Positions 3,509-55,063 of a DNA stretch of 64,000 bases are shown here, piece by piece. Position 1 is the first letter of the stretch; every line of letters begins with the position of its first letter. Under the pieces are notes generated by a model. That model made no database searches, was not told the DNA's origin, and was given only the letters and a program-made list of their open reading frames with translations. Source of the DNA: Spirochaetaceae bacterium (lineage in GTDB: Bacteria; Spirochaetota; Spirochaetia; DSM-2461); NCBI GenBank assembly GCA_051531975.1, contig JAOPTT010000006.1, forward strand, positions 622,977 through 686,976, written 5' to 3'. The translations under genes were made by a program, and so were the position numbers.

Positions 3509-3898
3509 CTAATCCTCTTCAGGTAACATAACCGTTATCACAGGTTCAGCAGTATCTCCTGGTCCTATTAAAGATTTAATCTTAACTGTCTTTGATCCAT
3601 CTTTAGTAGCAAACACTACATTTACAAATACAGTATTACCATTAGCACCTTTACTAGCTAAATGTAAATGCATCAATACATCCCAGATCCTCCCGGAACT
3701 ACTCTGTCCCATCCTTTTACTATATTCATCTGGTTCTATCCAATTAGCGTATAAAGTATGAGTTACAGCAACAGGAACTTTAAAACCTGCTTCTTTTGCC
3801 ATAACAGATATATCTAATAAAAATCCATCAGCTATAGCCATCTCTCTTGTATATACAGATATAGGTTCTCCAAATATTTCTCTCATTGATTCACTCAT
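3509..3898 (-). CDS. DUF6573-like mobile-element protein
   Basis: YTREMAIADG...AKEAGFKVPVAVT...GRIWDVL...PVITVMLPEED pattern. Confidence 0.65.
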   Translation of the reverse strand: MSESMREIFGEPISVYTREMAIADGFLLDISVMAKEAGFKVPVAVTHTLYANWIEPDEYSKRMGQSSSGRIWDVLMHLHLASKGANGNTVFVNVVFATKDGSKTVKIKSLIGPGDTAEPVITVMLPEED

Positions 3899-3976
3899 TT
3901 TTTTATCCTTATTTAGGTAAAATAGTTAATTACCCCTGAGATTTCTCCCAAGGATATATAATTATTCTTTTGTTAT

Positions 3977-4144
3977 TTAGTCACTATCTTTTACAAGTTC
4001 TAAACGCTTTATCTCAGTCTCTACTTTACTTGCTAAAGTGTATGTTCTAGACTCTAATTTTTCTTGATGACTCCAATATGTCGTATTAGGTATCTGATTT
4101 AGAACTTCTAAACAATCCCGAAGTATTTCAATTGTTTCTTTCAT
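3977..4144 (-). CDS. Small hypothetical protein
   Basis: ATG at 4144 after GAGGGG RBS, in operon; the ORF-track start at 4195 is less likely. Confidence 0.55.
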   Translation of the reverse strand: MKETIEILRDCLEVLNQIPNTTYWSHQEKLESRTYTLASKVETEIKRLELVKDSD

Positions 4145-4154
4145 AAAACACCCC

Positions 4155-4373
4155 TCATTCTGTATGTCTCGAAGAAATTCCATCATCAAGGACATCCATA
4201 GCTTTCTGAATAGAGTCCTTTAGGTTTCTACTCTCTATAGCTATGTCATGAACTACATCTATAATCTTCACTTTCTCCAGCCACTTTACATATTGAGGTA
4301 AGTTCTTTTTAGTTATATCCAGATCAGTCTCAGCCTTAAACAGCATACGAAGTTTATCTTTTCCTATATCCAT
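4155..4373 (-). CDS. Small hypothetical protein
   Basis: Directly follows ardC in the same operon; ATG at 4373 after GGGGGA. Confidence 0.6.
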   Translation of the reverse strand: MDIGKDKLRMLFKAETDLDITKKNLPQYVKWLEKVKIIDVVHDIAIESRNLKDSIQKAMDVLDDGISSRHTE

Positions 4374-4384
4374 AACATCCCCCA

Positions 4385-5272
4385 CTACGAAGCAGTCTTA
4401 GCAACTTCTTCTTTAATAACAGAATGATCAATTACATACTTATAAGCTTTCTCTGCTTTTGATGTAGCCGAAGTAAACAACCTGCTATTCTCTTTTATCT
4501 TTTTCAACCAGTACCCAATGTAAGCTGAGTTATTATCAACAACATCTTTAATGATCCCAGCATCATAAGACAGATAAGCACTTCCAATCTCAGCAATTAA
4601 CTCTTCAACAGATCTAAACTCAATGTTGTCCTCTATAGTTAACCTATCGAGCCTAGAACTATGACCAGTAGAATGGATCAACTCATGAAACCACGTAGAA
4701 TAGAACTCTTCCACAGTCTCAAATTGACCTTTTGGAGGTAGTTTAATTAGGTCAGCCTTGGGATAGTAAAGGGGGTTATAGGAGACACCTGTCGAAACAT
4801 CAGGCATTTCACTATAGTTTCTAAGGATTTCCTCAGCTCTTTCAAGTGGAACAAACTCTCTCTGTTCTAACTCTAAAGAGTTTAATATTATTTGCTCTTT
4901 AGTAGTCAGCTTAATATCTTCACACTGATCCAAATGAAAGACCGTATAGTACCGTAGAATAAAGTAAGGCTTTTTATCCTCATCTTCTTCATTATCAATT
5001 CTCTTGAAGAATACTACTGGGAATCCTTTCTCACCTTTCTTGATATATCCACCTCTAGCATCAGCTTGCTTGTAGGTTAGAAAATATGGAGAAGTATCAT
5101 ATTGCATCGCAAGGCAACTCAAGAGTATCTGGTTAATACCACTGTAAACCCTACCACTAGATAAGCTCATAGGTGGAAGTCCTTGTTGAGACTTCCACAG
5201 TTTCTGCCAAGGAATAACACCTTCTTTAAGTTTATCTGTAATAATTTTATTCACCATGTCATACACACTCAT
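4385..5272 (-). CDS. ardC: ArdC-family antirestriction / ssDNA-binding zincin protein
   Basis: N-terminal GVIPWQK..Y.GIN..LTYKQA..GG.IKKGEKG; C-terminal HELIH zincin motif and EELIAEIGSA. Confidence 0.9.
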   Translation of the reverse strand: MSVYDMVNKIITDKLKEGVIPWQKLWKSQQGLPPMSLSSGRVYSGINQILLSCLAMQYDTSPYFLTYKQADARGGYIKKGEKGFPVVFFKRIDNEEDEDKKPYFILRYYTVFHLDQCEDIKLTTKEQIILNSLELEQREFVPLERAEEILRNYSEMPDVSTGVSYNPLYYPKADLIKLPPKGQFETVEEFYSTWFHELIHSTGHSSRLDRLTIEDNIEFRSVEELIAEIGSAYLSYDAGIIKDVVDNNSAYIGYWLKKIKENSRLFTSATSKAEKAYKYVIDHSVIKEEVAKTAS

Positions 5273-6173
5273 TTTTCAGACCTCCATCCATTAACTTTTG
5301 TGCATACTCTTTTAGGTAAGATCCATCGGGCAGGATTTCACTAACAGCTAAAAGCCTCTCTTTAAATGGGAAGAAATTACTCATCTCAACATCAATATCA
5401 GCACCCCAGTCATCAAGCTTTTTTTGGATAAGTAATGCATCAATCTGGAGATAATTTTTACCATCTTCAGATTTAGAACCACCTTTTCCCCTACCCGGAA
5501 CCTTGAAGTCATCCTTAACTTTATTGACTACTTCAACCTTCTTATCAGACTTCCCGGAACCTTGTTTCTCCTTATCCAGTAAAGACTTATACGCACCATT
5601 AATAGTCAACATTCCTGCTCTAATAGACTCCTTAGTCTTATCAGATCCTCTGTTTATTACAGTGATGTATTTCTGGGCAGTACCAATAGAGACTGATAAT
5701 ATTTCAGCTAACTCGTTCTTTTTTCTACCACTCTTTTTTACACCGTGACCAACGTTGTTCACATAGGTTTCTGAAAACTGGAATCTATCTGCATCTGTTA
5801 GATTTCTTCTCTTGAACTGAAGCCCGTATGCATATCGAAGAGCAGAATCAACATCTTCAAAATTTTCATAGATTACAACGACATCTTTTATACCTGCTTT
5901 CTTAGCAGCTTCACATCGAGTATGTCCATCTATTAACATGTTTGTTTCTGTCCAGATAATTACTGGTTGAGAAACATCAAATCCATTTACTTTCATGTCC
6001 TCTGTAATTGATTTAAGTGTCTCTGGATTAATTGGGAACAGATCTACAAATGGCGTACCCTTTTTGATATCCTTTAATTTTATTGTCTCGTAACCATTAC
6101 TTTTAATTTTGAGTGGCTTCTTAACTTTTGAAGACGGTTTTATCCTGTCTTTTAATTTAGTTATAGCATTCAC
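5259..6173 (-). CDS. ParB/Srx N-terminal domain protein with HTH
   Basis: LIDGHTRCEAA ParB box, RRNLT motif, downstream HTH. Confidence 0.85.
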   Translation of the reverse strand: MNAITKLKDRIKPSSKVKKPLKIKSNGYETIKLKDIKKGTPFVDLFPINPETLKSITEDMKVNGFDVSQPVIIWTETNMLIDGHTRCEAAKKAGIKDVVVIYENFEDVDSALRYAYGLQFKRRNLTDADRFQFSETYVNNVGHGVKKSGRKKNELAEILSVSIGTAQKYITVINRGSDKTKESIRAGMLTINGAYKSLLDKEKQGSGKSDKKVEVVNKVKDDFKVPGRGKGGSKSEDGKNYLQIDALLIQKKLDDWGADIDVEMSNFFPFKERLLAVSEILPDGSYLKEYAQKLMDGGLKNECV

Positions 6174-6245
6174 AATAATGCCCCCTGTTTGAGATATTTA
6201 ATTTTTGTGCTTTGATTTATTGTTGGGTAGAACTACCCGGAACTG

Positions 6246-7166
6246 TTAAACGACTTTAACTTCAATGCTGGCAAGTGTACCTAAGACATGTTCATTCATC
6301 TCAATAACCTTGTTGCCAGTTGTATCATTAACTATCTGATCAATAATCCATTGGAAGTGAGTATTACTAAAAAGATCCTTACTCTTTTTCATTAACTTTT
6401 GAAGTTCATGATGGGCATCACTCTCTATAGGAAATAGAGGTTTTGTAGAATCATGAACAACGTTGTTCACAGGTCTTTGTAACTTTGGTTCCTGGATATC
6501 TTCTACACCCTCAGATAACCAGTCCTTCATAGCTTTACCAAAATCTTCTCCAGGCTTCTCTATAATAGCGTCTTGAAACTTCCCTGTTCTATCTTTAATT
6601 ACTTCACCAATATGATCCGTAGATAATTGCATAAGAAGGTCAAACTCATACTCAATACCTTTACCCTGGGACGGTGCAAGACTGACTCGAACAGGTTTTG
6701 TTTTTCCATTTTGAACCTCTGTTGTCCACTCAGTCTTGCAGCGCATAGTTGAGATGATGTGTCCATCAAAGTTGAGAATTGCATTAACTAAAGCTTTCTG
6801 TTTTGGTGTACCTTCACTCCATGCACTCCAAGTGTTACCTCGATATTTTGCTCTAGCTATACGATCTACTTCCTCTAGTAGTTCTTGCCAACCGTGAGAT
6901 AAGGAATCTATAATTAAGTTGTCATAGTTCCGGGCCTCCCTTATTAGCTTGATATAGTTCTCTATTGATGGTTTAGGTAACTCACATACATCAAAACTGA
7001 ACCTGTCAGCATACTTACTGGCTGATCCCTTCTCACTATCAATAACAGCTATTGAACCACCCATACCCGTAGCTATTCGTAATGCTGTAAATGTCTTACC
7101 ACCACCTGATGGACCAAACAGTGCTAACCTTAATTTGCTTTGTTTCTTAGATGCTCTTTTAAACAT
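6246..7166 (-). CDS. AAA_24 P-loop ATPase (Sak4-like phage recombination ATPase)
   Basis: LRLALFGPSGGGKT Walker A, IDSE, LIIDSLSH Walker B, EYEFD. Confidence 0.8.
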   Translation of the reverse strand: MFKRASKKQSKLRLALFGPSGGGKTFTALRIATGMGGSIAVIDSEKGSASKYADRFSFDVCELPKPSIENYIKLIREARNYDNLIIDSLSHGWQELLEEVDRIARAKYRGNTWSAWSEGTPKQKALVNAILNFDGHIISTMRCKTEWTTEVQNGKTKPVRVSLAPSQGKGIEYEFDLLMQLSTDHIGEVIKDRTGKFQDAIIEKPGEDFGKAMKDWLSEGVEDIQEPKLQRPVNNVVHDSTKPLFPIESDAHHELQKLMKKSKDLFSNTHFQWIIDQIVNDTTGNKVIEMNEHVLGTLASIEVKVV

Positions 7167-7180
7167 ATTTGTCTCCCTTA

Positions 7181-7612
7181 TTATTTAGTTGATTCAATAC
7201 TTCTTTCCGAATTTTCTGTAAAACTGTAATAATTGTTTTTTGAAATTATGATGTGATCTATAACTTTAATTCCTATTAGCTCACCTGCATCAACTAGTCT
7301 TTGAGTTACTGCTTTGTCTTCTGGACTTGGATCTGTATTACCGCTTGGGTGATTGTGAACTAGTATTACGGATGCAGCATTATCTAAAATTGCTTGCTTG
7401 AAAACTTCTCTAGGGTGTATTAACGTTCTATTTAGGATTCCTATTGAAATTAATCTGACTCCTATAACTTGATGTGAACCATCTAAGGTTGCTACTATGA
7501 AATGTTCTTTCTCTAAACATCTATACCTTTTAAGACATGGTAATAAGTCTGTTGGATAGGAAATTTTAACTTCAAACTTCTCTGTTCTCTCACTAATAAT
7601 TTGATATTTCAT
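7181..7612 (-). CDS. radC: RadC-like JAB/JAMM domain protein, intact metal motif
   Basis: KEHF, HPREVF, HNHPSG..PSPED, DHIII. Confidence 0.9.
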   Translation of the reverse strand: MKYQIISERTEKFEVKISYPTDLLPCLKRYRCLEKEHFIVATLDGSHQVIGVRLISIGILNRTLIHPREVFKQAILDNAASVILVHNHPSGNTDPSPEDKAVTQRLVDAGELIGIKVIDHIIISKNNYYSFTENSERSIESTK

Positions 7613-7618
7613 TCAAAC

Positions 7619-7661
7619 ACTCCTCTGTTTATAAATAAAATAAGCAGGCAACGACCTGCTT
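7619..7661 (-). repeat. Hairpin + U-tract + RBS leader, copy upstream of radC paralogue 1
   Basis: AAGCAGG/CCTGCTT stem, then TATTTTATTTATAAAC and GAGGAG on the minus strand; homologous to 8141-8196 and 9100-9145. Confidence 0.7.
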
Positions 7662-7685
7662 TAACTTGTGATTTTTGTTCTTTAT

Positions 7686-8132
7686 TTAAATTGGCTTATA
7701 TGGCCATACTTCATCTTTGGATAGAGTAGCCAACTTGTTATCTGCAAAACTAAAATATCCATCATCTTCTACAATTAAATGATCTAAAACTTCTATCTCT
7801 AATTGACTACCCTTCATTACCATATCTTCAATAATTTGAATGTCTTCAGCTGTTGGTATAGTCATTTCTGGATTACGGCTTTGTGCTGTAACGATAGTTT
7901 TACTACTAGATTTTTGTGCAAGTTTAAATATTTTTTGTGTTAGTTCCGGGTAGAACTTTTTAAAATCAAGAATGTGTATTTTTATTAAATAACAAGAGGC
8001 ATCTAATAGTATGACAAAGATTTTATCTTTATGAAGATTGATACACTCAGTAACTAAATCAAAAACTTCCCGTGAATGACCAATTCTTAAATCTTCTTTA
8101 ATCCGGCGCTCCATTATTATTTGATATTTCAT
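7686..8132 (-). CDS. Degenerate RadC/JAB paralogue lacking HxH
   Basis: Same MKYQII start, FVILLD, PTAED, EVLDHLIV..YFSF; HNH replaced by QSR. Confidence 0.75.
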   Translation of the reverse strand: MKYQIIMERRIKEDLRIGHSREVFDLVTECINLHKDKIFVILLDASCYLIKIHILDFKKFYPELTQKIFKLAQKSSSKTIVTAQSRNPEMTIPTAEDIQIIEDMVMKGSQLEIEVLDHLIVEDDGYFSFADNKLATLSKDEVWPYKPI

Positions 8133-8140
8133 TTAACCTT

Positions 8141-8196
8141 CTCCTTCTGGTTATAAATAAAATAGGCAGACCGGATGGCCTGCCTATTTTATTTAT
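8141..8196 (-). repeat. Hairpin + U-tract + RBS leader, copy upstream of paralogue 2
   Basis: ATAAATAAAATAGGCAG/CTGCCTATTTTATTTAT inverted repeat, followed by AACCAGAAGGAG on the minus strand. Confidence 0.7.
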
Positions 8197-8210
8197 GCTT
8201 TTGTTCTTGT

Positions 8211-8657
8211 TTAAACTTCCCTGTATGACCAATCATCGTATTTAGCCATACCTGCAAGTTTGCTTTCTGCATAGCTAAAATATTTATCTTTTGATATGAA
8301 TAAATGATCTAAAACCTTAATATTTATTAAAACACCAGCTTTAACAAATGATTCAATAACTTCTATATTGCCACTATGAATATTCATACTTTTATACTTA
8401 CGACTATTGGCAGTTATGATATATTTACAGTTATCTAAAATTGCTAATCTGCATATTTTGGGTACTAGTTCCGGGTTATCTTTTTTTACGTCTAAGATGT
8501 GTAGCTTTTGGATAAAACAGTCTTTATCTAGGATCAAAACAAACAGATTCTTTTTCTCAGTATCTATAAAGCTCCTTATTACTTTTAAGACATCCTTAAC
8601 ATGATTGATCTGGATACTGGGATAACTCTCACTATCAATAATTACTGGGTAGTTCAT
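8211..8657 (-). CDS. Degenerate RadC/JAB paralogue lacking HxH and S-x2-D
   Basis: FVLILD, AILDN, AGVLINIKVLDHLFIS..YFSY. Confidence 0.75.
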   Translation of the reverse strand: MNYPVIIDSESYPSIQINHVKDVLKVIRSFIDTEKKNLFVLILDKDCFIQKLHILDVKKDNPELVPKICRLAILDNCKYIITANSRKYKSMNIHSGNIEVIESFVKAGVLINIKVLDHLFISKDKYFSYAESKLAGMAKYDDWSYREV

Positions 8658-8683
8658 TGTTACCCTCCTTACTAGATTTTAAT

Positions 8684-9094
8684 TTATTCTTCTTGTACAC
8701 CTTGATAGACTTCAGTGTACTTTCCATCTTCGTAATGCAAGATATTCCACAGCATCGTAGCTATGTTGCTACTAAGAATCTCTTGGATTGCTTTGTTATA
8801 ACCCAAATCCAGTCTCTGACTTTTGGGTTTAATGTTGTAAGCAACTGATATATAAGCTGCTTCATCAAGAATAGAAATTATTGATAAACGACTTAGTACA
8901 GACTCAAAACTTTTTAGACCTTTTATTGGGAATAAATGTAAGTTGTATAGTTGGAACTGATCATTCATTGTTGCTAAGAACAGCGTGTCTATTTCTCGGA
9001 TTATTAGACTGTTGATAATCTTATCGAAATAGTATGAGCTATATAATTTACTATCTATTTTTGGTTGTAGATGGTTTATGATTCTAAATCCCAT
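8684..9094 (-). CDS. Highly diverged RadC/JAB-like paralogue
   Basis: FLATMNDQFQL and ILDEAAYISVAYN align with FIVATLDGSHQV and ILDNAASVILVHN; same size and same leader element. Confidence 0.55.
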   Translation of the reverse strand: MGFRIINHLQPKIDSKLYSSYYFDKIINSLIIREIDTLFLATMNDQFQLYNLHLFPIKGLKSFESVLSRLSIISILDEAAYISVAYNIKPKSQRLDLGYNKAIQEILSSNIATMLWNILHYEDGKYTEVYQGVQEE

Positions 9095-9099
9095 AGATC

Positions 9100-9145
9100 C
9101 TCCTTCTAGGTTATAAATAGAAAGAGCAGGCGGTTAAGCCTGCTC
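9100..9145 (-). repeat. Hairpin + U-tract + RBS leader, copy upstream of paralogue 4
   Basis: GAGCAGGC/GCCTGCTC stem, then TTTCTATTTATAACCTAGAAGGAG on the minus strand. Confidence 0.7.
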
Positions 9146-9212
9146 AAGATACTCTTCCGGTCTTCTATCCGGTTAGGCCATACGGCCTCAATTTTCCTAC
9201 AGATTGAACTTA

Positions 9213-9302
9213 CTATCTGATAATAATTTTAATAATATCGATAATAATATCTGGTACTGAATTCCCTGAGTCATCTGGTTTTGAAATAATCCATCTTCTC
9301 AT
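9213..9302 (-). CDS. 29-aa Ile-rich small peptide (possible leader peptide)
   Basis: Strong AAGGAGG RBS; MRRWIISKPDDSGNSVPDIIIDIIKIIIR*. Confidence 0.4.
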   Translation of the reverse strand: MRRWIISKPDDSGNSVPDIIIDIIKIIIR

Positions 9303-9456
9303 TTAAGGTTCCTCCTTATTATGGGATCACCTAAATAATATATAAGATGAAGTGGGACTGATGCGATTTTAGAGTAGAGGTTTGTAACATAGATAATTAG
9401 CTGGATGTTATATCCCTACTATCTGTGAAGCCTATTGAGATATTTTTGGTGAAATA

Positions 9457-9822
9457 CTATTCTAAATAGCTATCCTGTCTTTTCATTAATACATACTGCT
9501 TTTGTATTGCGATCTTTTCATTTACAGTTAAGCGAGACCATTTCTCCTTGTATGTCTTAGGATTATTTATAATCTTATTTACGGCACTTCTTCCATACAT
9601 AGGAGATCTACCATTGAAAAAAGCAGGTATTCCAAAGTCAGGAAGTTGCCATTTTATCAACGAGCCTTGAGAGGCATAACCCCATTTAGAAGCTATCTTA
9701 CTTTTATTTAAAAACTCAGGTGCTATTGTGTATCTACGATGTTCTTCTAACTCATTTCTTATCTCTAGTTTTAGTTCGCTAAGAAACTTTTTTAAATAGT
9801 CTGGGATCTTGTCATTTTCCAT
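9457..9822 (-). CDS. Hypothetical protein, possible Xis/MerR-like HTH
   Basis: EFLNKSKIASKWG...LPDFG...PMYGRSAV resembles a winged HTH; GAGAGG RBS. Confidence 0.45.
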   Translation of the reverse strand: MENDKIPDYLKKFLSELKLEIRNELEEHRRYTIAPEFLNKSKIASKWGYASQGSLIKWQLPDFGIPAFFNGRSPMYGRSAVNKIINNPKTYKEKWSRLTVNEKIAIQKQYVLMKRQDSYLE

Positions 9823-9929
9823 ATGTACCTCTCGGATTCATTTATTATGATTGCTATTATATCGTATCAATAACCTCTTTCACTTATATATTATTTACCT
9901 GAATACATTGCGTATTAAGGAGAACAAAA

Positions 9930-10292
9930 ATGAATAGTTTAAACTCGATTTTATTAGAAGGTACTCTAATAGAAGATCCTGATGAATCAAGCACAGATAA
10001 TGATGCTATGGTATGCTCATTTTCAATTATGGCCAATAGATCCTATAAGAAGGAAAAAGATCTAATTCAAGAAGAATCATACTTCCCAATAGAAGTATAT
10101 TCTAATATCGCTGAAGCGTGTCTTAAACATTTACACAAAGGTAGAGGTGTCAGAGTTGTTGGAAGACTGAAACAGGACAGATGGTTGGATGAAAATGAAA
10201 ACCAACTCTCCCAAATAAAGATTATCGCTGAACATGTGGAATTTAAGCCTATTGTGGTTCCGGGAGATCAGGTTTTGGATAAGGCTGTTTAA
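9930..10292 (+). CDS. ssb: Single-stranded DNA-binding protein (short form)
   Basis: LNSILLEG.L, FSIMANR, KGRGVRVVGRLKQDRW, IIAEHVEF. Confidence 0.9.
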   Translation: MNSLNSILLEGTLIEDPDESSTDNDAMVCSFSIMANRSYKKEKDLIQEESYFPIEVYSNIAEACLKHLHKGRGVRVVGRLKQDRWLDENENQLSQIKIIAEHVEFKPIVVPGDQVLDKAV

Positions 10293-13225: not shown

Positions 13226-13483
13226 GGTATTCTGAGAGGATCTTGGATATTTTAATGTATCTATATTATGCCAGTAAGACTGTTTATATCAATGTGGCCT
13301 TTGCTCGTAAAGATAATCAAAGACAGCTAAGATGAAAGCTATTCTTAGCCTAGGAAATACGGCTGATCCTGTGTTTGTCTTTTTTCTTAATGTACCTCCA
13401 TTTTTCATGGAGTATAAATCAGATTTGGAATTCTACAAGGTGGAGTTAATTACCGCTTACCTAGTAATAAATATATTTATAAA

Positions 13484-16174
13484 TTATTCAAAATAATTTT
13501 CGTTAAGAATATCATTTATTTCATCTATAAAAGGAAAGTCAGACGAAGAGAACTCATTTATAAATGATTTTAATTGTTGTGTTAGTATTTCAATTATTTT
13601 ATTTTCACTTTTGATTAATAACAAAGATCTAGCGAATGCCAACGTAAACAAAAAACGTGAAAAAGTTTTCCTACATTCATAATGATGATAAAATATGTCC
13701 TCTATTGAGTTATAGTATTCATTTGAAAATTCAATACAATTCATATAAGATTTAGTGACATATAACCAACTTATTGCTGTTAGATATTTCTTACTTCTTT
13801 TATCAGAAGAGTAATAGACTTCCTTATTATTAAAAATAGTAAAAGCTTTTTTCATCTCCTTCTGATCATTATCAGATAAAGATTTAAATAAAGAATATTC
13901 ACCTTTTAGTTGATAATATTCAGTATCAATCATTGACTCACCTATTAAATACTCCCTTGAATTATATATTTCTTCAATATTGTTAAGTATTGACTTAGCG
14001 TCACGAAAATTATTTTTCCATATTTGGATTCGACATAGTGATTGTAAAGGCATTAAATAATAGCGATCATTATTTCGTTTTAATTCATTATAAATTATTA
14101 ATGATTTTTTTATATGCTTTTCTGCTAACTCCAATTTACCAATTTCTACATAATGATAACCTAGATTATTATGGTATCTTGCAATAGAAAATAAATCATT
14201 GCTAATTATTGCACTATTTAGAGCTTTCGTCTTATAGAGTTCTGCCTCAGAATATTTAGCTAATGATCCAAGACTACCCCCAATATTATCTGAAATATTC
14301 ATTGAAACCCTATAATATTGGTCATTCCGTTTATTCTTATTTACTTTATTAAGAATTCTATAAGCATCTTTTTTTAATTTTAAAGCAGCTTCATGTCCTT
14401 TTAATAAACCAATAGTATAGGCGTATCTGGAAATATACGACGCTTTTAAAGGATCAGAGTCTTTCATATGTTTTAGTACTAGTTTATACCCAATTTTTTT
14501 ATATTTTAAAGATACTTCATAGTTCTTTGCTGCTCCATAAACAGCTCCTAATTCATACAAAAATAAAATCTGATAAGTTATATAATCGTATTTCTCAGTA
14601 AGTCCAACAGCAAATTCAAACTTCATTATTATTGGTTCTATATTAGAAAAAGAGTCATAAGCAGCAGTTGAGTTTTCTATAATATAAATAATTTTATCCA
14701 CTAAATCAGGGTTTGAAATTAATTCTTTATTTATTATATCTTTATAATATTCTATAAAATACATAATATAGTTGTGATTTAATAAATAAATCTCGCTCTT
14801 AATCCACTGAGTTAATGATTCATAATTGATATCGTTAGAAATTCGTAGGTAGTCTAAAAATATTCTTTTTTTATCATTAAAAAATGTATTATCAAAAGCA
14901 GATAAAAAAATATTGTGACAGTTATACTCAGCATTGTCTCCTAATGTGTTTTGCTTAAGTATACCAATACGGATTAGGGAGTGTATAACTTCATCAATAT
15001 TGACTAGTAAATTAGTATGTTTTTTAATACATTTTAAGATCTCATATTTGATATTACCACCTGTAGTGAATAATATAATAACTAGTATAATATATCCATT
15101 ATTCAAAATATCAATATTTGATGAAATCTGTGTTATATGCATGACTAAGTCATGAATTGTTGTATATCCATCATTTTCTAGTGAAAATGATGGTGGTAAA
15201 CTTGGTAATGTAGCAAAACTATCATCAATGATAGTTTTTAATAAATCATTACCAGTTGTAATATAATATTCTTCTATTGTTTTTGAATAATAACTAATTA
15301 ACTTAGGATGAGAACCTAATTTATTTATCAATAAATCTAAATAATATTCATTGTTTAGTACTTTATGATATTCTAATGCATTTGAATAAAATAATTGTCT
15401 AGCCTCTAACTTTGAAATACTTTCAATACTATAATAATAAACATTATTATTAGGAACATTACCAAACCATTGTCTAGATGTTAAAATGACTTTCCATACA
15501 TCTCTATTTAGTCCCATGATTATGTCAGGGGGGAATTTAGAATTAGAACTAATATTATCTATAATAAGAAGATTTGGTCCAGGTGTTCTTGAGTTTAGAA
15601 AATCTAATATATCAGTTGTTGTTTCTAATCTATATGAAGAAAACCTACTAAGATACTGAGAAAGAGTAGTTAAAATATCTGTACCTTGTATATCAACATA
15701 TATACGATGTACAAAATACTCTTTTTTCCCATAATAAATTAGACCTGCTAATGTTGTTTTACCCCAACCCCCAATTCCTTGTAGGAATAGGATATGATAC
15801 TTATTAAATTTTTTAAAAAGCAGACTCACAATTTCTTTTCGTTGAAGCTCTGATAGGTTATTCCCAGAAATCGGACGCTCTCCTAATTCATTTATATTAT
15901 ATCCATATTTTTCTACACCAACTTTGAATCGCATTACGTTATCTCTAAGTTTTCCAACAGGAATAATTTTACTATCAAACCATGTCCTAATATAATTCCA
16001 GTCTTTAACATCAAAAATATCTATTAAAATTCTTCTCATGTTTCTTGGTGGATAAAAATCATCAGACTGAGATGGTTTATGTGTATCCGAATTACTATCA
16101 ATTTGGTTATAGTACCACAGGATAAAATCATGTATTATTTGAGAACTTCTATTTCTATTTTTAATTAACTTCAT
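13484..16174 (-). CDS. NB-ARC/STAND ATPase with C-terminal TPRs (NLR-like)
   Basis: GIGGWGKTTLA Walker A, LLIIDN Walker B, ILTSR sensor, LGSHPK (GxP), TPRs such as ARYHNNLGYHY..G...AE. Confidence 0.85.
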   Translation of the reverse strand: MKLIKNRNRSSQIIHDFILWYYNQIDSNSDTHKPSQSDDFYPPRNMRRILIDIFDVKDWNYIRTWFDSKIIPVGKLRDNVMRFKVGVEKYGYNINELGERPISGNNLSELQRKEIVSLLFKKFNKYHILFLQGIGGWGKTTLAGLIYYGKKEYFVHRIYVDIQGTDILTTLSQYLSRFSSYRLETTTDILDFLNSRTPGPNLLIIDNISSNSKFPPDIIMGLNRDVWKVILTSRQWFGNVPNNNVYYYSIESISKLEARQLFYSNALEYHKVLNNEYYLDLLINKLGSHPKLISYYSKTIEEYYITTGNDLLKTIIDDSFATLPSLPPSFSLENDGYTTIHDLVMHITQISSNIDILNNGYIILVIILFTTGGNIKYEILKCIKKHTNLLVNIDEVIHSLIRIGILKQNTLGDNAEYNCHNIFLSAFDNTFFNDKKRIFLDYLRISNDINYESLTQWIKSEIYLLNHNYIMYFIEYYKDIINKELISNPDLVDKIIYIIENSTAAYDSFSNIEPIIMKFEFAVGLTEKYDYITYQILFLYELGAVYGAAKNYEVSLKYKKIGYKLVLKHMKDSDPLKASYISRYAYTIGLLKGHEAALKLKKDAYRILNKVNKNKRNDQYYRVSMNISDNIGGSLGSLAKYSEAELYKTKALNSAIISNDLFSIARYHNNLGYHYVEIGKLELAEKHIKKSLIIYNELKRNNDRYYLMPLQSLCRIQIWKNNFRDAKSILNNIEEIYNSREYLIGESMIDTEYYQLKGEYSLFKSLSDNDQKEMKKAFTIFNNKEVYYSSDKRSKKYLTAISWLYVTKSYMNCIEFSNEYYNSIEDIFYHHYECRKTFSRFLFTLAFARSLLLIKSENKIIEILTQQLKSFINEFSSSDFPFIDEINDILNENYFE

Positions 16175-42288: not shown

Positions 42289-43191
42289 TTATTTACACCT
42301 AAACCCACATTCTTTATTTATGTTGTTATTATTTAATCCCATAAAATTGATTGGAGTATTGGGAAACTCTATTAATAGATTATTAAACTTATTAATAAAT
42401 TCATCATACTCATCTAATGGTTTTATAAGTTCACCTATTATATCCAATATTATGATTATTTTTTTTCTTTGCTTAGTGCTATATATTCTTTGCATATTTT
42501 TAGTAATTGAAGGTTTTATTGTGAGTGATGAATTCCAAAGCCTACCGTGATGGGCACAAATATTTCTTATTGTAGTAATCGATTGAACCCAGGACTCTAA
42601 TAAAAATGGTTTAACTCTGAAATAATTTGCTATATTTTTTTTTACATCCTTATTTTCTAATGATTTATATATTTTTGACCAGCTCCCAAAAGATATTACC
42701 TCAATTAACATCCATGATGCAGGTATTTTGGGTTCAGTATATTTATCTATGTAATTTTTTATAAAAATCTCATTGCTTCTTTTAATTTCTCTCCCAATAT
42801 CTAAAATAAATTTTTCATGATCAAACTGTGCATTTACATGTTTTTTTGATAATGGCCAATGAGAATCTTTACTGTTTAATGACATATGTAAATTTAGTTG
42901 AGTCCGAAATGCTACTTCTATATGGGTAATTGCATCAAATAATATAGTTCTTAACTTATCATCAAAATTATACAGATCAACTACATTTTTAAAATCTGTA
43001 TTTTTTTTATATTTATGGGTTCTCTTCCTATCTTCAAAAATTTCATAGTGTAAAGCATATCCAACAAATCTATAATAGCTTACTTTATTTAGAAACTTCG
43101 TTGCAAAATCTCTATTGGAGATTACCATACCTCTAGACTCTAATATATTAAGTTGTTCTTCAATGTTTGTTGGAGGTGAATTATATTTGAT
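42289..43191 (-). CDS. AbiD/AbiF (Abi_2) family HEPN protein; probable ATC start
   Basis: PPTNIEEQL..L.SRG, VSYYRF, LY.FD..LR, IEV.FR, W.LIEV.SFG, RNICAHHGRLWN. Frame extends 21 codons upstream of the ORF-track ATG to an ATC 6 nt after AGGGGG. Confidence 0.85.
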   Translation of the reverse strand: MKYNSPPTNIEEQLNILESRGMVISNRDFATKFLNKVSYYRFVGYALHYEIFEDRKRTHKYKKNTDFKNVVDLYNFDDKLRTILFDAITHIEVAFRTQLNLHMSLNSKDSHWPLSKKHVNAQFDHEKFILDIGREIKRSNEIFIKNYIDKYTEPKIPASWMLIEVISFGSWSKIYKSLENKDVKKNIANYFRVKPFLLESWVQSITTIRNICAHHGRLWNSSLTIKPSITKNMQRIYSTKQRKKIIIILDIIGELIKPLDEYDEFINKFNNLLIEFPNTPINFMGLNNNNINKECGFRCK

Positions 43192-52916: not shown

Positions 52917-53270
52917 TCAGCCACAAATCTTAATTTGTTTTTCTTTATTATATAAATTATAAAAATATGCTTCATCTGGTGTTCTTTTCCTAAGGGAATT
53001 ATGTGGTCTTCTTAAGTTGTATTTATCAATATATCTATTAATTCCTTGAATCGCTTCTATTGGATTTTCATAATCTTTTAAATAAACTTCTCCATATTTT
53101 AATGTTTTCCAGAATCTTTCGATTGTGATACTTTCTGATTCAGAAGTATCTGGGAAAAATAATCCTAAACAGCGGAATATAATTTTTACAATACTGATAG
53201 GCATATCTCTAAATACAACATCAAACATTAGGATAGCCATTGGAGTTCCTTGATTAGATATAAACATCAT
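52917..53270 (-). pseudogene. IS3-family transposase C-terminal fragment
   Basis: IERFWKTLKY.EVYL..Y, YN..RPH.SL...TP.E.Y. Confidence 0.8.
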
Positions 53271-53351: not shown

Positions 53352-53669
53352 ATGAATCAGGATAAAAAATTAGAAAAAATCAAGGACATAATAGTCGAAA
53401 CTGTACATCCAGATAAAATTATACTTTTTGGATCACGAGCCAATGGTACAAATAAAGACGACAGTGACTATGATATCTTTATACTAAAAAATGGTATTAC
53501 TAATGAAAGAACCATAATTGGTGATGTCAATGTTGCCCTATTTAGGAATCATATTATTGATGATATTGATATTGTCGCAGCTAATCCTGAAAAATTTGAA
53601 AAACACAAAAACAATGACTATTTAGTTTATAAAGATATTTATAACCAGGGAATAACTATTTATGGATAA
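53352..53669 (+). CDS. Minimal nucleotidyltransferase (MNT) antitoxin
   Basis: ILFGSRA.G...DSDYD. Confidence 0.9.
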   Translation: MNQDKKLEKIKDIIVETVHPDKIILFGSRANGTNKDDSDYDIFILKNGITNERTIIGDVNVALFRNHIIDDIDIVAANPEKFEKHKNNDYLVYKDIYNQGITIYG

Positions 53670-54042
53670 GAGCATTGATCCAAAAGAATGGTTGAACAGA
53701 GCTTATGGTTGTTTGCTAAGGGCGAGAAAACCTATTGAAGAAGGTATGTACTATGAAGACTTCTGCTATGACTGCCAGCAAGCAGCTGAAAAAGCTCTTA
53801 AAGCCCTAATCGTTAGATTAGGTCTAGATCTACATAGAACCCACTCTTTTAGAAAACTTCTTAACGAATTAACAAAAAGAATAATTATTCCTGAATCAAT
53901 ATTTGATGTTCTTAAAATTGAAGTATATGCAGTAACAACAAGGTACCCAGATGATTTTATTGAAGTATCTGAAAATGAATATAGAGAAGCATTAGAAATT
54001 GCTCAAAGAGTATATGACTGGACTTCAGAAAATATAAAATAA
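53662..54042 (+). CDS. HEPN-domain protein paired with MNT
   Basis: CQQAAEKALKA, RTH, YAVTTRYP; overlaps the MNT stop. Confidence 0.9.
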   Translation: MDKSIDPKEWLNRAYGCLLRARKPIEEGMYYEDFCYDCQQAAEKALKALIVRLGLDLHRTHSFRKLLNELTKRIIIPESIFDVLKIEVYAVTTRYPDDFIEVSENEYREALEIAQRVYDWTSENIK

Positions 54043-54273
54043 ACTTCTATAAAATCTTACCTTTAGATGAATATAACCATTATTATTGTTTAAACCTTGT
54101 ATTAGATAAATACTAAAAAGTTACGAATTCCGTAAATTTACTAAATTCGAATCACTTCAGGTGTAGAGTTACGTTTCATTGTAACCAAAATTGGATAGCC
54201 ACAACCACTCTATTGTTCATTATGATGCAGTATTGTTTCCTAGAAAGCGAAAGTACTATGTAATCTTGTCAAA

Positions 54274-54432
54274 TGTAGCCAATATTGTAGCCAAAACCCA
54301 GACAAACTGATACAAAACAGTACTAAACTATACAAAGTCTAAGACATCTAAGTTACTAATCTGTATAAAGTTATACAAAATAAAGCAAAGCGATACGAAA
54401 GCTATTGGAGGTTTCGATTCCCTCCACCTCCA
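54274..54432 (+). repeat. att-like unit D
   Basis: TGTAGCCAA x2 (54274, 54286), phased motifs, GGAGGTTTCGATTCCCTCCACCTCCA (54407-54432). Confidence 0.9.
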
Positions 54433-54434
54433 TT

Positions 54435-54770
54435 TTAAGACTTATATAAATCTTTTATTGAAGTGATTAGCGTTGGAATTGTTCTTGAAACAGTTGTCCA
54501 AATTATTTCATAATCAACAACATCATAACCATGAATTAATCGATCCCTCATACCAGCCATAGCTTTCCATGGAATACTTTTATTTGATTCTCTAAAATCA
54601 TCAGGGATTCGCTTACTAGCTTCACCAATAATCTCCAAACATCTTATTACTGCAAATTGAGTTTTTTCATCGTATTTGAACTCATCTTTTGATAGTCCCT
54701 TTATAAACTCTTGGGTTAATTCCATAGATTTTAAAATATCGTTAAGATAGACCTTAAAATCTTTTTTCAC
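54435..54770 (-). CDS. hepT: HepT-like (DUF86) HEPN RNase toxin
   Basis: LEIIGEA, IPW..MAGMRDRLIHGY (RxxxxHxY). Confidence 0.9.
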   Translation of the reverse strand: MKKDFKVYLNDILKSMELTQEFIKGLSKDEFKYDEKTQFAVIRCLEIIGEASKRIPDDFRESNKSIPWKAMAGMRDRLIHGYDVVDYEIIWTTVSRTIPTLITSIKDLYKS

Positions 54771-55063
54771 AGATATTGAACCTCAGATAATATAGATTCA
54801 TTAATTATAGGTTTGAGTGAAGATTTTAGGACGAGATCAACTGTAGTATTTAGATCTTCAGTAAGTTCCTGCTCTAATGTAATAAGATCAAAAAGATCCA
54901 TTTTCGAGGGCCTAGACAAATCAATGAGTATATCAACATCACTGTTAGCATTTTCTTCACCTCTTACATAAGATCCAAAGATACCTATTTCACTAATACC
55001 TGATTCTAGTAATCTCTTTTTCTTTTTAAGAAGTGTATCTTTGATGATGTTTAAGTCTGTCAT
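54767..55063 (-). CDS. mntA: MntA-like nucleotidyltransferase antitoxin
   Basis: IFGSYVRGE....SDVDIL, VDLV...L. Confidence 0.9.
   Translation of the reverse strand: MTDLNIIKDTLLKKKKRLLESGISEIGIFGSYVRGEENANSDVDILIDLSRPSKMDLFDLITLEQELTEDLNTTVDLVLKSSLKPIINESILSEVQYL

Follow-up and report, generated by a model that had tools for sequence, protein, structure and literature searches.

The 64,000-nucleotide (nt) stretch of DNA analysed here (the window), from the 5.46-Mb genome of a marine spirochaete (G000), carries between positions 7181 and 9094 four co-oriented open reading frames (ORFs) on the minus strand that encode RadC-type JAB paralogues of graded divergence. The metal site is complete in only one of them, g1; the other three (g2, g3 and g4) have lost it and are nevertheless intact genes, and three of the four are preceded by the same hairpin-containing leader. 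Our literature and sequence searches turned up no earlier description of an active RadC arrayed in tandem with inactive RadC families that stand alone, and neither of these families has a Pfam model of its own; the parts (RadC JAB, pseudo-enzyme paralogues, intercistronic hairpin) are of known kinds. We tentatively suggest that the dead copies are binding proteins that partner the active one.

Pfam recognizes three of the four proteins: g1 (E = 7.2e-43, 145.8 bits), g2 (E = 8.5e-14, 52.0 bits) and g3 (E = 1.7e-9, 38.1 bits) each cover nearly the full 121 positions of the RadC model PF04002 and exceed its gathering score of 22.1 bits, while g4 matched nothing in Pfam or PHROGs. BLASTP connects g1 to g2 (29% identity, E = 1e-17), g2 to g3 (37%, E = 2e-35) and g3 to g4 (26%, E = 1e-6); the comparison of g4 with g1 was not significant. 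Together with the hhalign comparisons given below, these results bear out a first-pass annotation of the window, which had proposed a tandem array of four RadC/JAB paralogues of graded divergence and had placed it correctly. The Prok-JAB model PF14464 was matched by g1 only, with a score (15.2 bits, E = 0.02) under its cut-off of 25.

The fate of the metal site was followed in an alignment of 65 rows, 49 of which are canonical RadC proteins. In these 49, E36, H86, H88 and D99 are each present without exception and S96 is present in 48. The JAMM site, E...HxH(x7)S(x2)D, is complete at all five positions in g1 only: at the same positions g2 has D/Q/R/T/D, g3 has K/N/R/H/N and g4 has D/Y/I/D/Y. 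The alignment thus agrees with the earlier description of one catalytic copy and three pseudo-enzymes with QSR, NSR and YNI in place of HxH. Because the zinc ligands and the catalytic glutamate are lost in g2/g3 and in g4, these proteins cannot be metallo-hydrolases. All of the dead copies have strong ribosome-binding sites (RBSs) and intact frames of constant length, as the first-pass annotation had also stated; to this we can add that they are conserved and under purifying selection. A maximum-likelihood tree separates the g4 family as a clade (100/100 support) and leaves g3 on a long branch without a firm placement, implying that the copies are old lineages rather than products of recent amplification. 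The word "amplified", if it was meant in that recent sense, should therefore give way to three old lineages.

The two 148-residue proteins, g2 and g3, belong to a small family with a distinctive tail. A profile built from them and from the g2 orthologue of a related genome of the same genus (G021) retrieved exactly seven proteins at E = 1e-44 or better (P0012-P0015 among them), all 148 residues long, and the next matches were canonical RadC proteins at E = 1e-15. The HxH position reads QSR, NSR, HNR, HSR and, three times, YSS across the seven members, and the catalytic glutamate is replaced by D, N or K. The 23 invariant columns include K139, W143 and Y145 of the C-terminal tail, which reads LSKD(E/D)VWPYKP(V/I) in g2 (window 7686-7730) and in the six other members. 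This tail is absent from the two active short RadCs that we aligned (g1 and its G021 orthologue), and its sequence looks like a docking peptide. Searched against the PDB, the family profile found 2qlc at E = 7.4e-16, and a search for fused (longer) forms of the family returned only one canonical RadC of 263 residues.

The g4 protein represents a second rare family. An exhaustive HMMER search with g4 and its orthologue over 1.84 billion representative sequences gave eight hits, of which six were real (members from this search include P0002-P0006); the other two, P0007 and P0008, are repeat proteins and were set aside as false positives. The members share the motifs DTLF..T.NDQ, NLHLFP.KG, AAY.SIA.N..P.S and W..LHY.DG.Y.E.YQ, with D36, F39, N44, N51, S83, A85 and N87 invariant. 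The hhalign comparison of g4 plus its orthologue with the g1-g3 set gave 96.5% probability (E = 8e-10 over 125 columns), and that of the g4 family with the g2 family gave 93.1% (E = 3.3e-7). Within its own genome the g4-family profile matches g3 (E = 3e-5); over 401 genomes of the phylum it found only G000 and one marginal match (E = 1.9e-4), and by sequence it found no PDB chain.

AlphaFold2, given a 65-row alignment, produced a model of g4 with a predicted local distance difference test score (pLDDT) of 86.6 and a predicted template-modelling score of 0.81. The five best PDB matches to this model are all chains of the Chlorobium RadC 2QLC (E = 1.3e-6 to 2e-5, TM scores 0.61-0.69, probability 1.00), followed by weak matches to Rpn11, Rpn8, CSN subunits and BRISC (E = 0.017-0.17) and to deaminases. 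The ESM Atlas placed RadC-like clusters at ranks 2-3 for g4 with a score of 0.80, under the 0.9 level used for a lead. The g4 protein is best described as a very divergent RadC-like JAB, tied to the family via g2 and g3. The first-pass annotation had named the lack of a JAB fold in the degenerate copies as one outcome that would refute it; the g4 model is compatible with a RadC/JAB fold and the g2 family matches 2qlc.

With g2 as query, adjacent multiple matches were found in only two of 38 genomes of the taxonomic family, G000 and G021; the 14 other genomes with a match had one weak match each, mostly in open frames of 219-286 residues. The G021 block consists of genes for DUF6573, ArdC, a ParB-like protein and AAA_24, an extra 101-residue ORF, and g1', g2' and g4', without g3. 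The order of g1, g2 and g4 is identical in the two genomes, nucleotide synteny extends from 3509 to 10275 of the window, and g1 shares 74% amino acid identity with its orthologue. For the g2 copy of G021, the NCBI name is one from Thiospirochaeta perfilievii. Beyond G021, similar arrays, which the first-pass annotation had proposed looking for, were sought in genome, metagenome and viral contigs, plasmids and phages. A search of plasmids with g2 returned 34 records annotated as JAB or RadC, all with less than 60% identity (31% or less in the 10 shown), and the one plasmid region inspected, from Enterococcus, has a single JAB gene and no array. Phages gave one match to g2, at 26.5%, and in tblastn neither plasmids nor phages matched g4. 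Searches for related loci with queries A5 and A7 against genome contigs, with A7 against metagenome contigs, and with A7 and A8 against viral contigs found none; query A8 found three loci in metagenome contigs at 22-39% identity, which we judged from identity and coverage to be generic RadC.

Nei-Gojobori estimates for the window genes against their G021 orthologues indicate selection on the dead copies. For g2, dN was 0.32 and dS 1.68, and for g4 they were 0.43 and 2.22, giving a dN/dS of 0.19 in both cases (pN/pS of the dead copies was 0.39 and 0.46). The neighbouring AAA_24 gene (dN 0.12, dS 1.53, dN/dS 0.08) and ParB-like gene (dN 0.13, dS 0.92, dN/dS 0.14) change more slowly at the protein level, as does g1 (dN 0.18, dS saturated). 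The dead copies are clearly constrained, and thus not decaying neutrally, yet their rate of change is two to three times that of g1 and its neighbours.

The leader found before g1, g2 and g4 starts with a hairpin of 20-24 nt, whose stem of 8-10 bp is built on an invariant GCAGG/CCTGC core and whose loop has 3-6 nt; behind it come a U-rich tract, the 9-nt TATTTATAA, which does not vary, and the Shine-Dalgarno sequence. The start of g3 has no hairpin: it follows g4 after a 26-nt spacer and has an AAGGAGG RBS. Searched for as GCAGR-N4-12-YCTGC-N3-T-N2-TATTTATAA, the element occurs three times in the whole 5.46-Mb genome, at 7629-7659, 8151-8183 and 9111-9143, always on the minus strand and upstream of one of these three genes, while the reversed pattern has no match there. 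Of the 401 class genomes searched, G000 and G021 alone contain it, the latter with three copies, before g1', g2' and g4' (the reversed control gave one hit over the 401). The hairpin-RBS leader before three genes that had been noticed in the letters is thus confirmed. Its distance to the RBS is short and fixed in five of the six copies.

Across these six copies 98.1% of the cells of the stem alignment are paired (four cells as G-U), and two of the nine pairs show compensatory changes from A-U to G-C, although, as the copies are related, these changes lend modest support. Owing to the G-U pairs, the sense strand folds better in four copies, by 1.4-4.7 kcal/mol with RNA parameters, and about equally well in the other two; the sense-strand RNA folding energies are -9.7 to -16.0 kcal/mol. 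This preference, with the compensatory changes, points to an element that works at the RNA level rather than to a promoter on template-strand single-stranded DNA (ssDNA). A GC-rich stem-loop directly followed by a U-rich tract is present on the sense strand, and a generic scan scored two of the three hairpins (9145-9124 and 7661-7642) as terminator-like. The earlier view of the hairpins as attenuators agrees with this: they look like intrinsic terminators by the scan, by sense-strand folding and by covariation, and the most likely role of the element is that of a terminator-like attenuator or stabiliser at the RNA level.

Other identities for the element were considered and rejected. The pattern has 19 matches, all single, in viral contigs, none with a RadC-like ORF within 3 kb (hmmsearch with three profiles), and we take these for chance or generic terminators. 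Rfam returned only two sub-threshold small-RNA matches (E = 0.29 and 0.99). Integron attC cassettes are not a match either: GTTATAA does not fit GTTRRRY, and no integron integrase was found, only an rve_3 fragment at 52917-53270.

The features of the locus are collected in Table 1. In the direction of transcription the unit runs from a small ORF through three hairpins to g4 and g3, then a hairpin, g2, another hairpin and g1, and on to the genes for a Sak4-like AAA_24 protein, a ParB-like protein, ArdC and DUF6573, with a single-stranded DNA-binding protein (SSB) gene transcribed divergently.

Table 1. Coordinates in the window of the array, its leader elements and the adjoining genes.
Feature	Position	Strand	Description
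g1	7181-7612	-	143 aa; short, JAB-only RadC; intact JAMM site (E36, H86-N-H88, S96, D99)
g2	7686-8132	-	148 aa; inactive RadC paralogue; QSR at HxH, Glu to Asp; C-terminal LSKDEVWPYKPI tail
g3	8211-8657	-	148 aa; inactive RadC paralogue; NSR at HxH, Glu to Lys, Asp to Asn
g4	8684-9094	-	136 aa; inactive, very divergent RadC-like protein; YNI at HxH; second rare family
Leader element 1	7629-7661	-	Hairpin 7661-7642, U-rich tract and invariant TATTTATAA; 8-14 nt before g1 RBS
Leader element 2	8151-8196	-	Inverted repeat with 20-nt arms (8153-8172 / 8177-8196), then TATTTATAA; before g2 RBS
Leader element 3	9111-9145	-	Hairpin 9145-9124 and TATTTATAA; before g4 RBS
Two further small hairpins	9188-9175 and 9172-9157	-	After the small ORF and before leader element 3; in G021 stems identical, loops variable
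Small ORF	9213-9302	-	29 aa; strong RBS (AAGGAGG); first ORF of the transcription unit; in G021 the same place holds a 27-aa counterpart whose ends are similar
CTTATATATTATT motif	9334-9346 and 9883-9895	- and +	Exact 13-nt match; heads the array unit and the divergent SSB gene
AAA_24 / Sak4-like ATPase	6246-7166	-	14 nt downstream of g1; Pfam AAA_24 2.1e-24; phrog_1366 2.4e-76; phrog_124
ParB-like protein	5259-6173	-	phrog_4715 2e-17
ArdC anti-restriction protein	4385-5272	-	ArdC-N and zincin peptidase domains; Pfam 1.9e-25 and 2.7e-25; phrog_7245 5.3e-56
DUF6573 protein	3509-3898	-	Pfam 2.9e-23; last gene of the block conserved with G021
SSB	9930-10292	+	Divergently transcribed; Pfam SSB 1.4e-20

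The product of the small ORF has a basic N-terminus and an isoleucine-rich C-terminus; it may be a small membrane peptide or serve attenuation as a leader peptide. No other DNA of the syntenic block is as well conserved as the leader before g4, at 82.7% identity compared with 68-79% in the genes, and the g4 coding sequence is too diverged between the two genomes for a blastn alignment. The CTTATATATTATT motif, probably a shared promoter or operator, is part of a 24-nt inverted repeat; the G021 locus has it once, ahead of the small ORF. Between the SSB gene and the array promoter, the window has a 121-residue ORF (9457-9822, minus strand) that has no Pfam or PHROG match and is not found in G021. 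In G021 a pair of MBL and beta-CASP genes, possibly one split gene (L026 10559-12535, minus strand), lies between the array leader and the SSB gene; it is absent from the window, as is the 101-residue ORF of no known family between g1' and AAA_24 (L026 8243-8548, minus strand).

The block has a GC content of 32-36%, against 24-30% in its flanks. Partial copies of the DUF6573 gene at 1650-1843 and 13230-13375, one direct and one inverted and with 71-77% identity to the G021 gene, flank the conserved module and may be recombination scars at its borders. The surroundings form a dense defence island in a large variable region, with an NB-ARC/TPR STAND protein, Abi_2, two MNT/HEPN-type pairs and two DUF2971 proteins (13484-16174, 42289-43128, 53352-55063); to the left of the window (L058) lie a type I restriction-modification system, a KAP NTPase, an nSTAND4-metallophosphatase and an Mrr-like nuclease. 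Our scan of ORFs in the window and its flanks showed no relaxase, type IV secretion system (T4SS), integrase or oriT, so that the description of the block as the establishment module of a mobile element is drawn from its gene content.

Conjugative elements contain RadC-type JABs, and ArdC fusions of these JABs are described (sections of PMC3239186 and PMC5512222); they probably lack the groove that holds a ubiquitin tail and are predicted to process nucleic acids (same section of PMC5512222), and in an excerpt of PMC12826799 RadC is still described as a putative nuclease. The only metal-less RadC domains mentioned are fusobacterial, in the passage of PMC3239186 on DinG/RAD3-like helicase fusions. 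Measured against the RadC JABs of mobile elements (PF04002, PDB 2QLC), whose short, JAB-only forms stand next to ArdC or are fused to it, g1 is an ordinary member and g2 and g3 pass the Pfam cut-off, and the association with ArdC, SSB and a ParB-like protein is likewise that described for conjugative-element RadCs in the sections of PMC3239186 and PMC5512222 just cited. The locus differs in that three of its four copies lack the metal site, that g4 goes unseen by Pfam, and that stand-alone inactive families are arrayed beside an active copy. In the open-access literature that we searched, we found no paper on tandem active/inactive RadC arrays.

In eukaryotes, JAMM proteins follow a pairing rule in which a catalytic MPN+ member is joined to a metal-less MPN- member: Rpn11 with Rpn8, CSN5 with CSN6, and BRCC36 with Abraxas. 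Here, likewise, catalytic and metal-less JAB paralogues are encoded together and presumably made together, in an order kept in two related genomes. The array proteins differ in belonging to the RadC clade, predicted in the relevant section of PMC5512222 not to bind ubiquitin tails, and the likeness is therefore one of a possible working mode, not of membership. The further link drawn by the first-pass annotation, to the JAB isopeptidases of CBASS (Cap3) and of bacterial ubiquitin-like systems, was not borne out: no CD-NTase, E1/E2 or ubiquitin-like protein genes were among the ORFs scanned in the window and flanks, and with Prok-JAB below its cut-off nothing places the proteins in the Prok-JAB/Cap3 clade. 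The leader elements resemble intercistronic terminators, attenuators and stabilising hairpins in having a GC-rich stem of 8-10 bp and a U-rich tract on the sense strand between co-oriented genes; they differ in being a single sequence family, confined to the array, conserved across species and marked by the invariant 9-nt TATTTATAA.

We propose that the locus is the promoter-proximal part of an establishment or anti-restriction operon of a horizontally acquired element. In it, g1 is a short RadC-type JAB, a predicted metallo-hydrolase, with a complete metal site, and g2/g3 and g4 are two old, rare RadC lineages that lost the metal site but kept the fold and motifs of their own. Selection maintains the dead copies, and their role is therefore probably binding, not cleavage. 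They may be binding proteins that cooperate with the active RadC or control it; as partner or adaptor subunits without catalysis of their own, they would stand to g1 as MPN- proteins stand to MPN+ proteins, and their target might be a nucleic-acid or protein substrate met as the DNA of the element enters or recombines. The hairpin, U-rich tract and TATTTATAA would act in the mRNA as leaky intrinsic terminators, 3′-end stabilisers or 5′ leaders that punctuate the operon, so that the promoter-proximal binding subunits could outnumber the enzyme and the products of the distal genes. The explanation we favour, if tentatively, has the dead copies as binding subunits that partner or gate g1 and the hairpins as leaky terminators or stabilisers that grade expression; we rate its chances a little short of even. 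A complex prediction for g1 with g2 scored 0.01, which counts neither for nor against binding.

Several observations weigh against this explanation. Compared with the active short RadCs alone, the g4 family reached a probability of only 18%, in the correct register, and the alignment behind the g4 model is dominated by RadC sequences, a model from two rows reaching a pLDDT of only 41.8. The synonymous sites are near saturation, which makes the dN/dS values rough. The genomic context comes from two related genomes, so the co-occurrence of the trio amounts to two non-independent cases. The hairpin of g4' in G021 lies about 115 nt from the start codon instead of about 30 nt, and the invariant TATTTATAA is conserved beyond what a plain U-tract would need.

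It is also possible, though on the unlikely side, that the dead copies make no contact with g1 and are independent binders, inhibitors or decoys of host defence or repair proteins, or nucleic-acid binders, merely co-expressed with ArdC and SSB; the first-pass annotation had proposed decoy or binding modules against host defence. Proteins in an arms race often evolve fast, and the dead copies have dN values of 0.32 and 0.43 against 0.12-0.18 for g1 and the neighbours; they share an operon with ArdC beside the SSB gene, the WPYKPV tail of the g2 family is conserved and docking-peptide-like, and gene content varies, with g3 in only one of the two genomes. Yet g1, g2 and g4 stand together in the same order in both genomes, and neither CBASS nor a ubiquitin-like or other JAB-linked system is among the neighbours scanned.

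Other explanations concern the hairpins. Each gene could be a cassette of its own, with the hairpin as a full terminator for the gene upstream and TATTTATAA, whose TATAAC or TATAAA is similar to a -10 hexamer, restarting transcription. We consider this improbable: transcription starting about 7 nt past the hexamer would begin within the Shine-Dalgarno sequence, 10-14 nt ahead of the ATG; no -35 box is conserved at 16-18 nt, where the loop and 3′ arm lie and vary between copies; and the scan has no minus-strand hit that ends at the hexamers, the nearest (8215-8186 and 8213-8186) ending on TAAAAT upstream of the hairpin. Still less probable, in our view, is that the hairpins are ssDNA signals used just after conjugative entry, similar to Frpo/ssi promoters or priming sites, rather than RNA elements. 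Frpo/ssi single-strand promoters are about 100-300 nt long, and the array hairpins differ from them in size (20-24 nt) and in strand preference: their 8-10 bp stems leave no room for -35 and -10 boxes, the sequences fit no sigma-70 spacing, and the sense strand folds better than the template strand in four of six copies and about equally well in two. The genes that follow such promoters in plasmid leading regions are alike (SSB, anti-restriction), and the set of SSB, ArdC, ParB-like and RadC genes is typical of leading or establishment regions (parts of PMC11541004 and PMC5512222), but the ORFs scanned include no relaxase or T4SS, and no oriT was seen. Finally, although all metal ligands are lost and both families are very rare, decay into functionless pseudogenes is barely credible for copies with intact frames of constant length, strong RBSs, family-specific invariant motifs that persist at 30-60% identity, pN/pS of 0.39 and 0.46 and dN/dS of about 0.19.

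RadC-type JABs are among the commonest unexplained genes of plasmids, integrative and conjugative elements and prophages, where they lie beside anti-restriction genes, and their biochemical activity is only predicted. An active copy kept beside conserved dead paralogues offers a natural handle on RadC, with candidate partners at hand. The finding is bounded by the rarity of the array, whose context is known from two genomes, with about seven members in each family; even so, two small new families, the 148-residue family with the WPYKPV tail and the g4 family, can now be named, and the array-specific hairpin, better conserved than the genes themselves, is a compact candidate case of operon punctuation. 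A bolder version of the partnership, which we regard as rather doubtful, is that the array is the mobile-element counterpart of the MPN+/MPN- principle: two or three dedicated metal-less paralogues, drawn from two families not recognised before, one of them invisible to Pfam, would join an active RadC and gate or aim its activity on incoming DNA or a host factor, with subunit ratios set by the conserved, array-specific RNA hairpin leader. If this reading is true, the array would encode the first defined multi-subunit machine of the RadC family, which has long gone unexplained.

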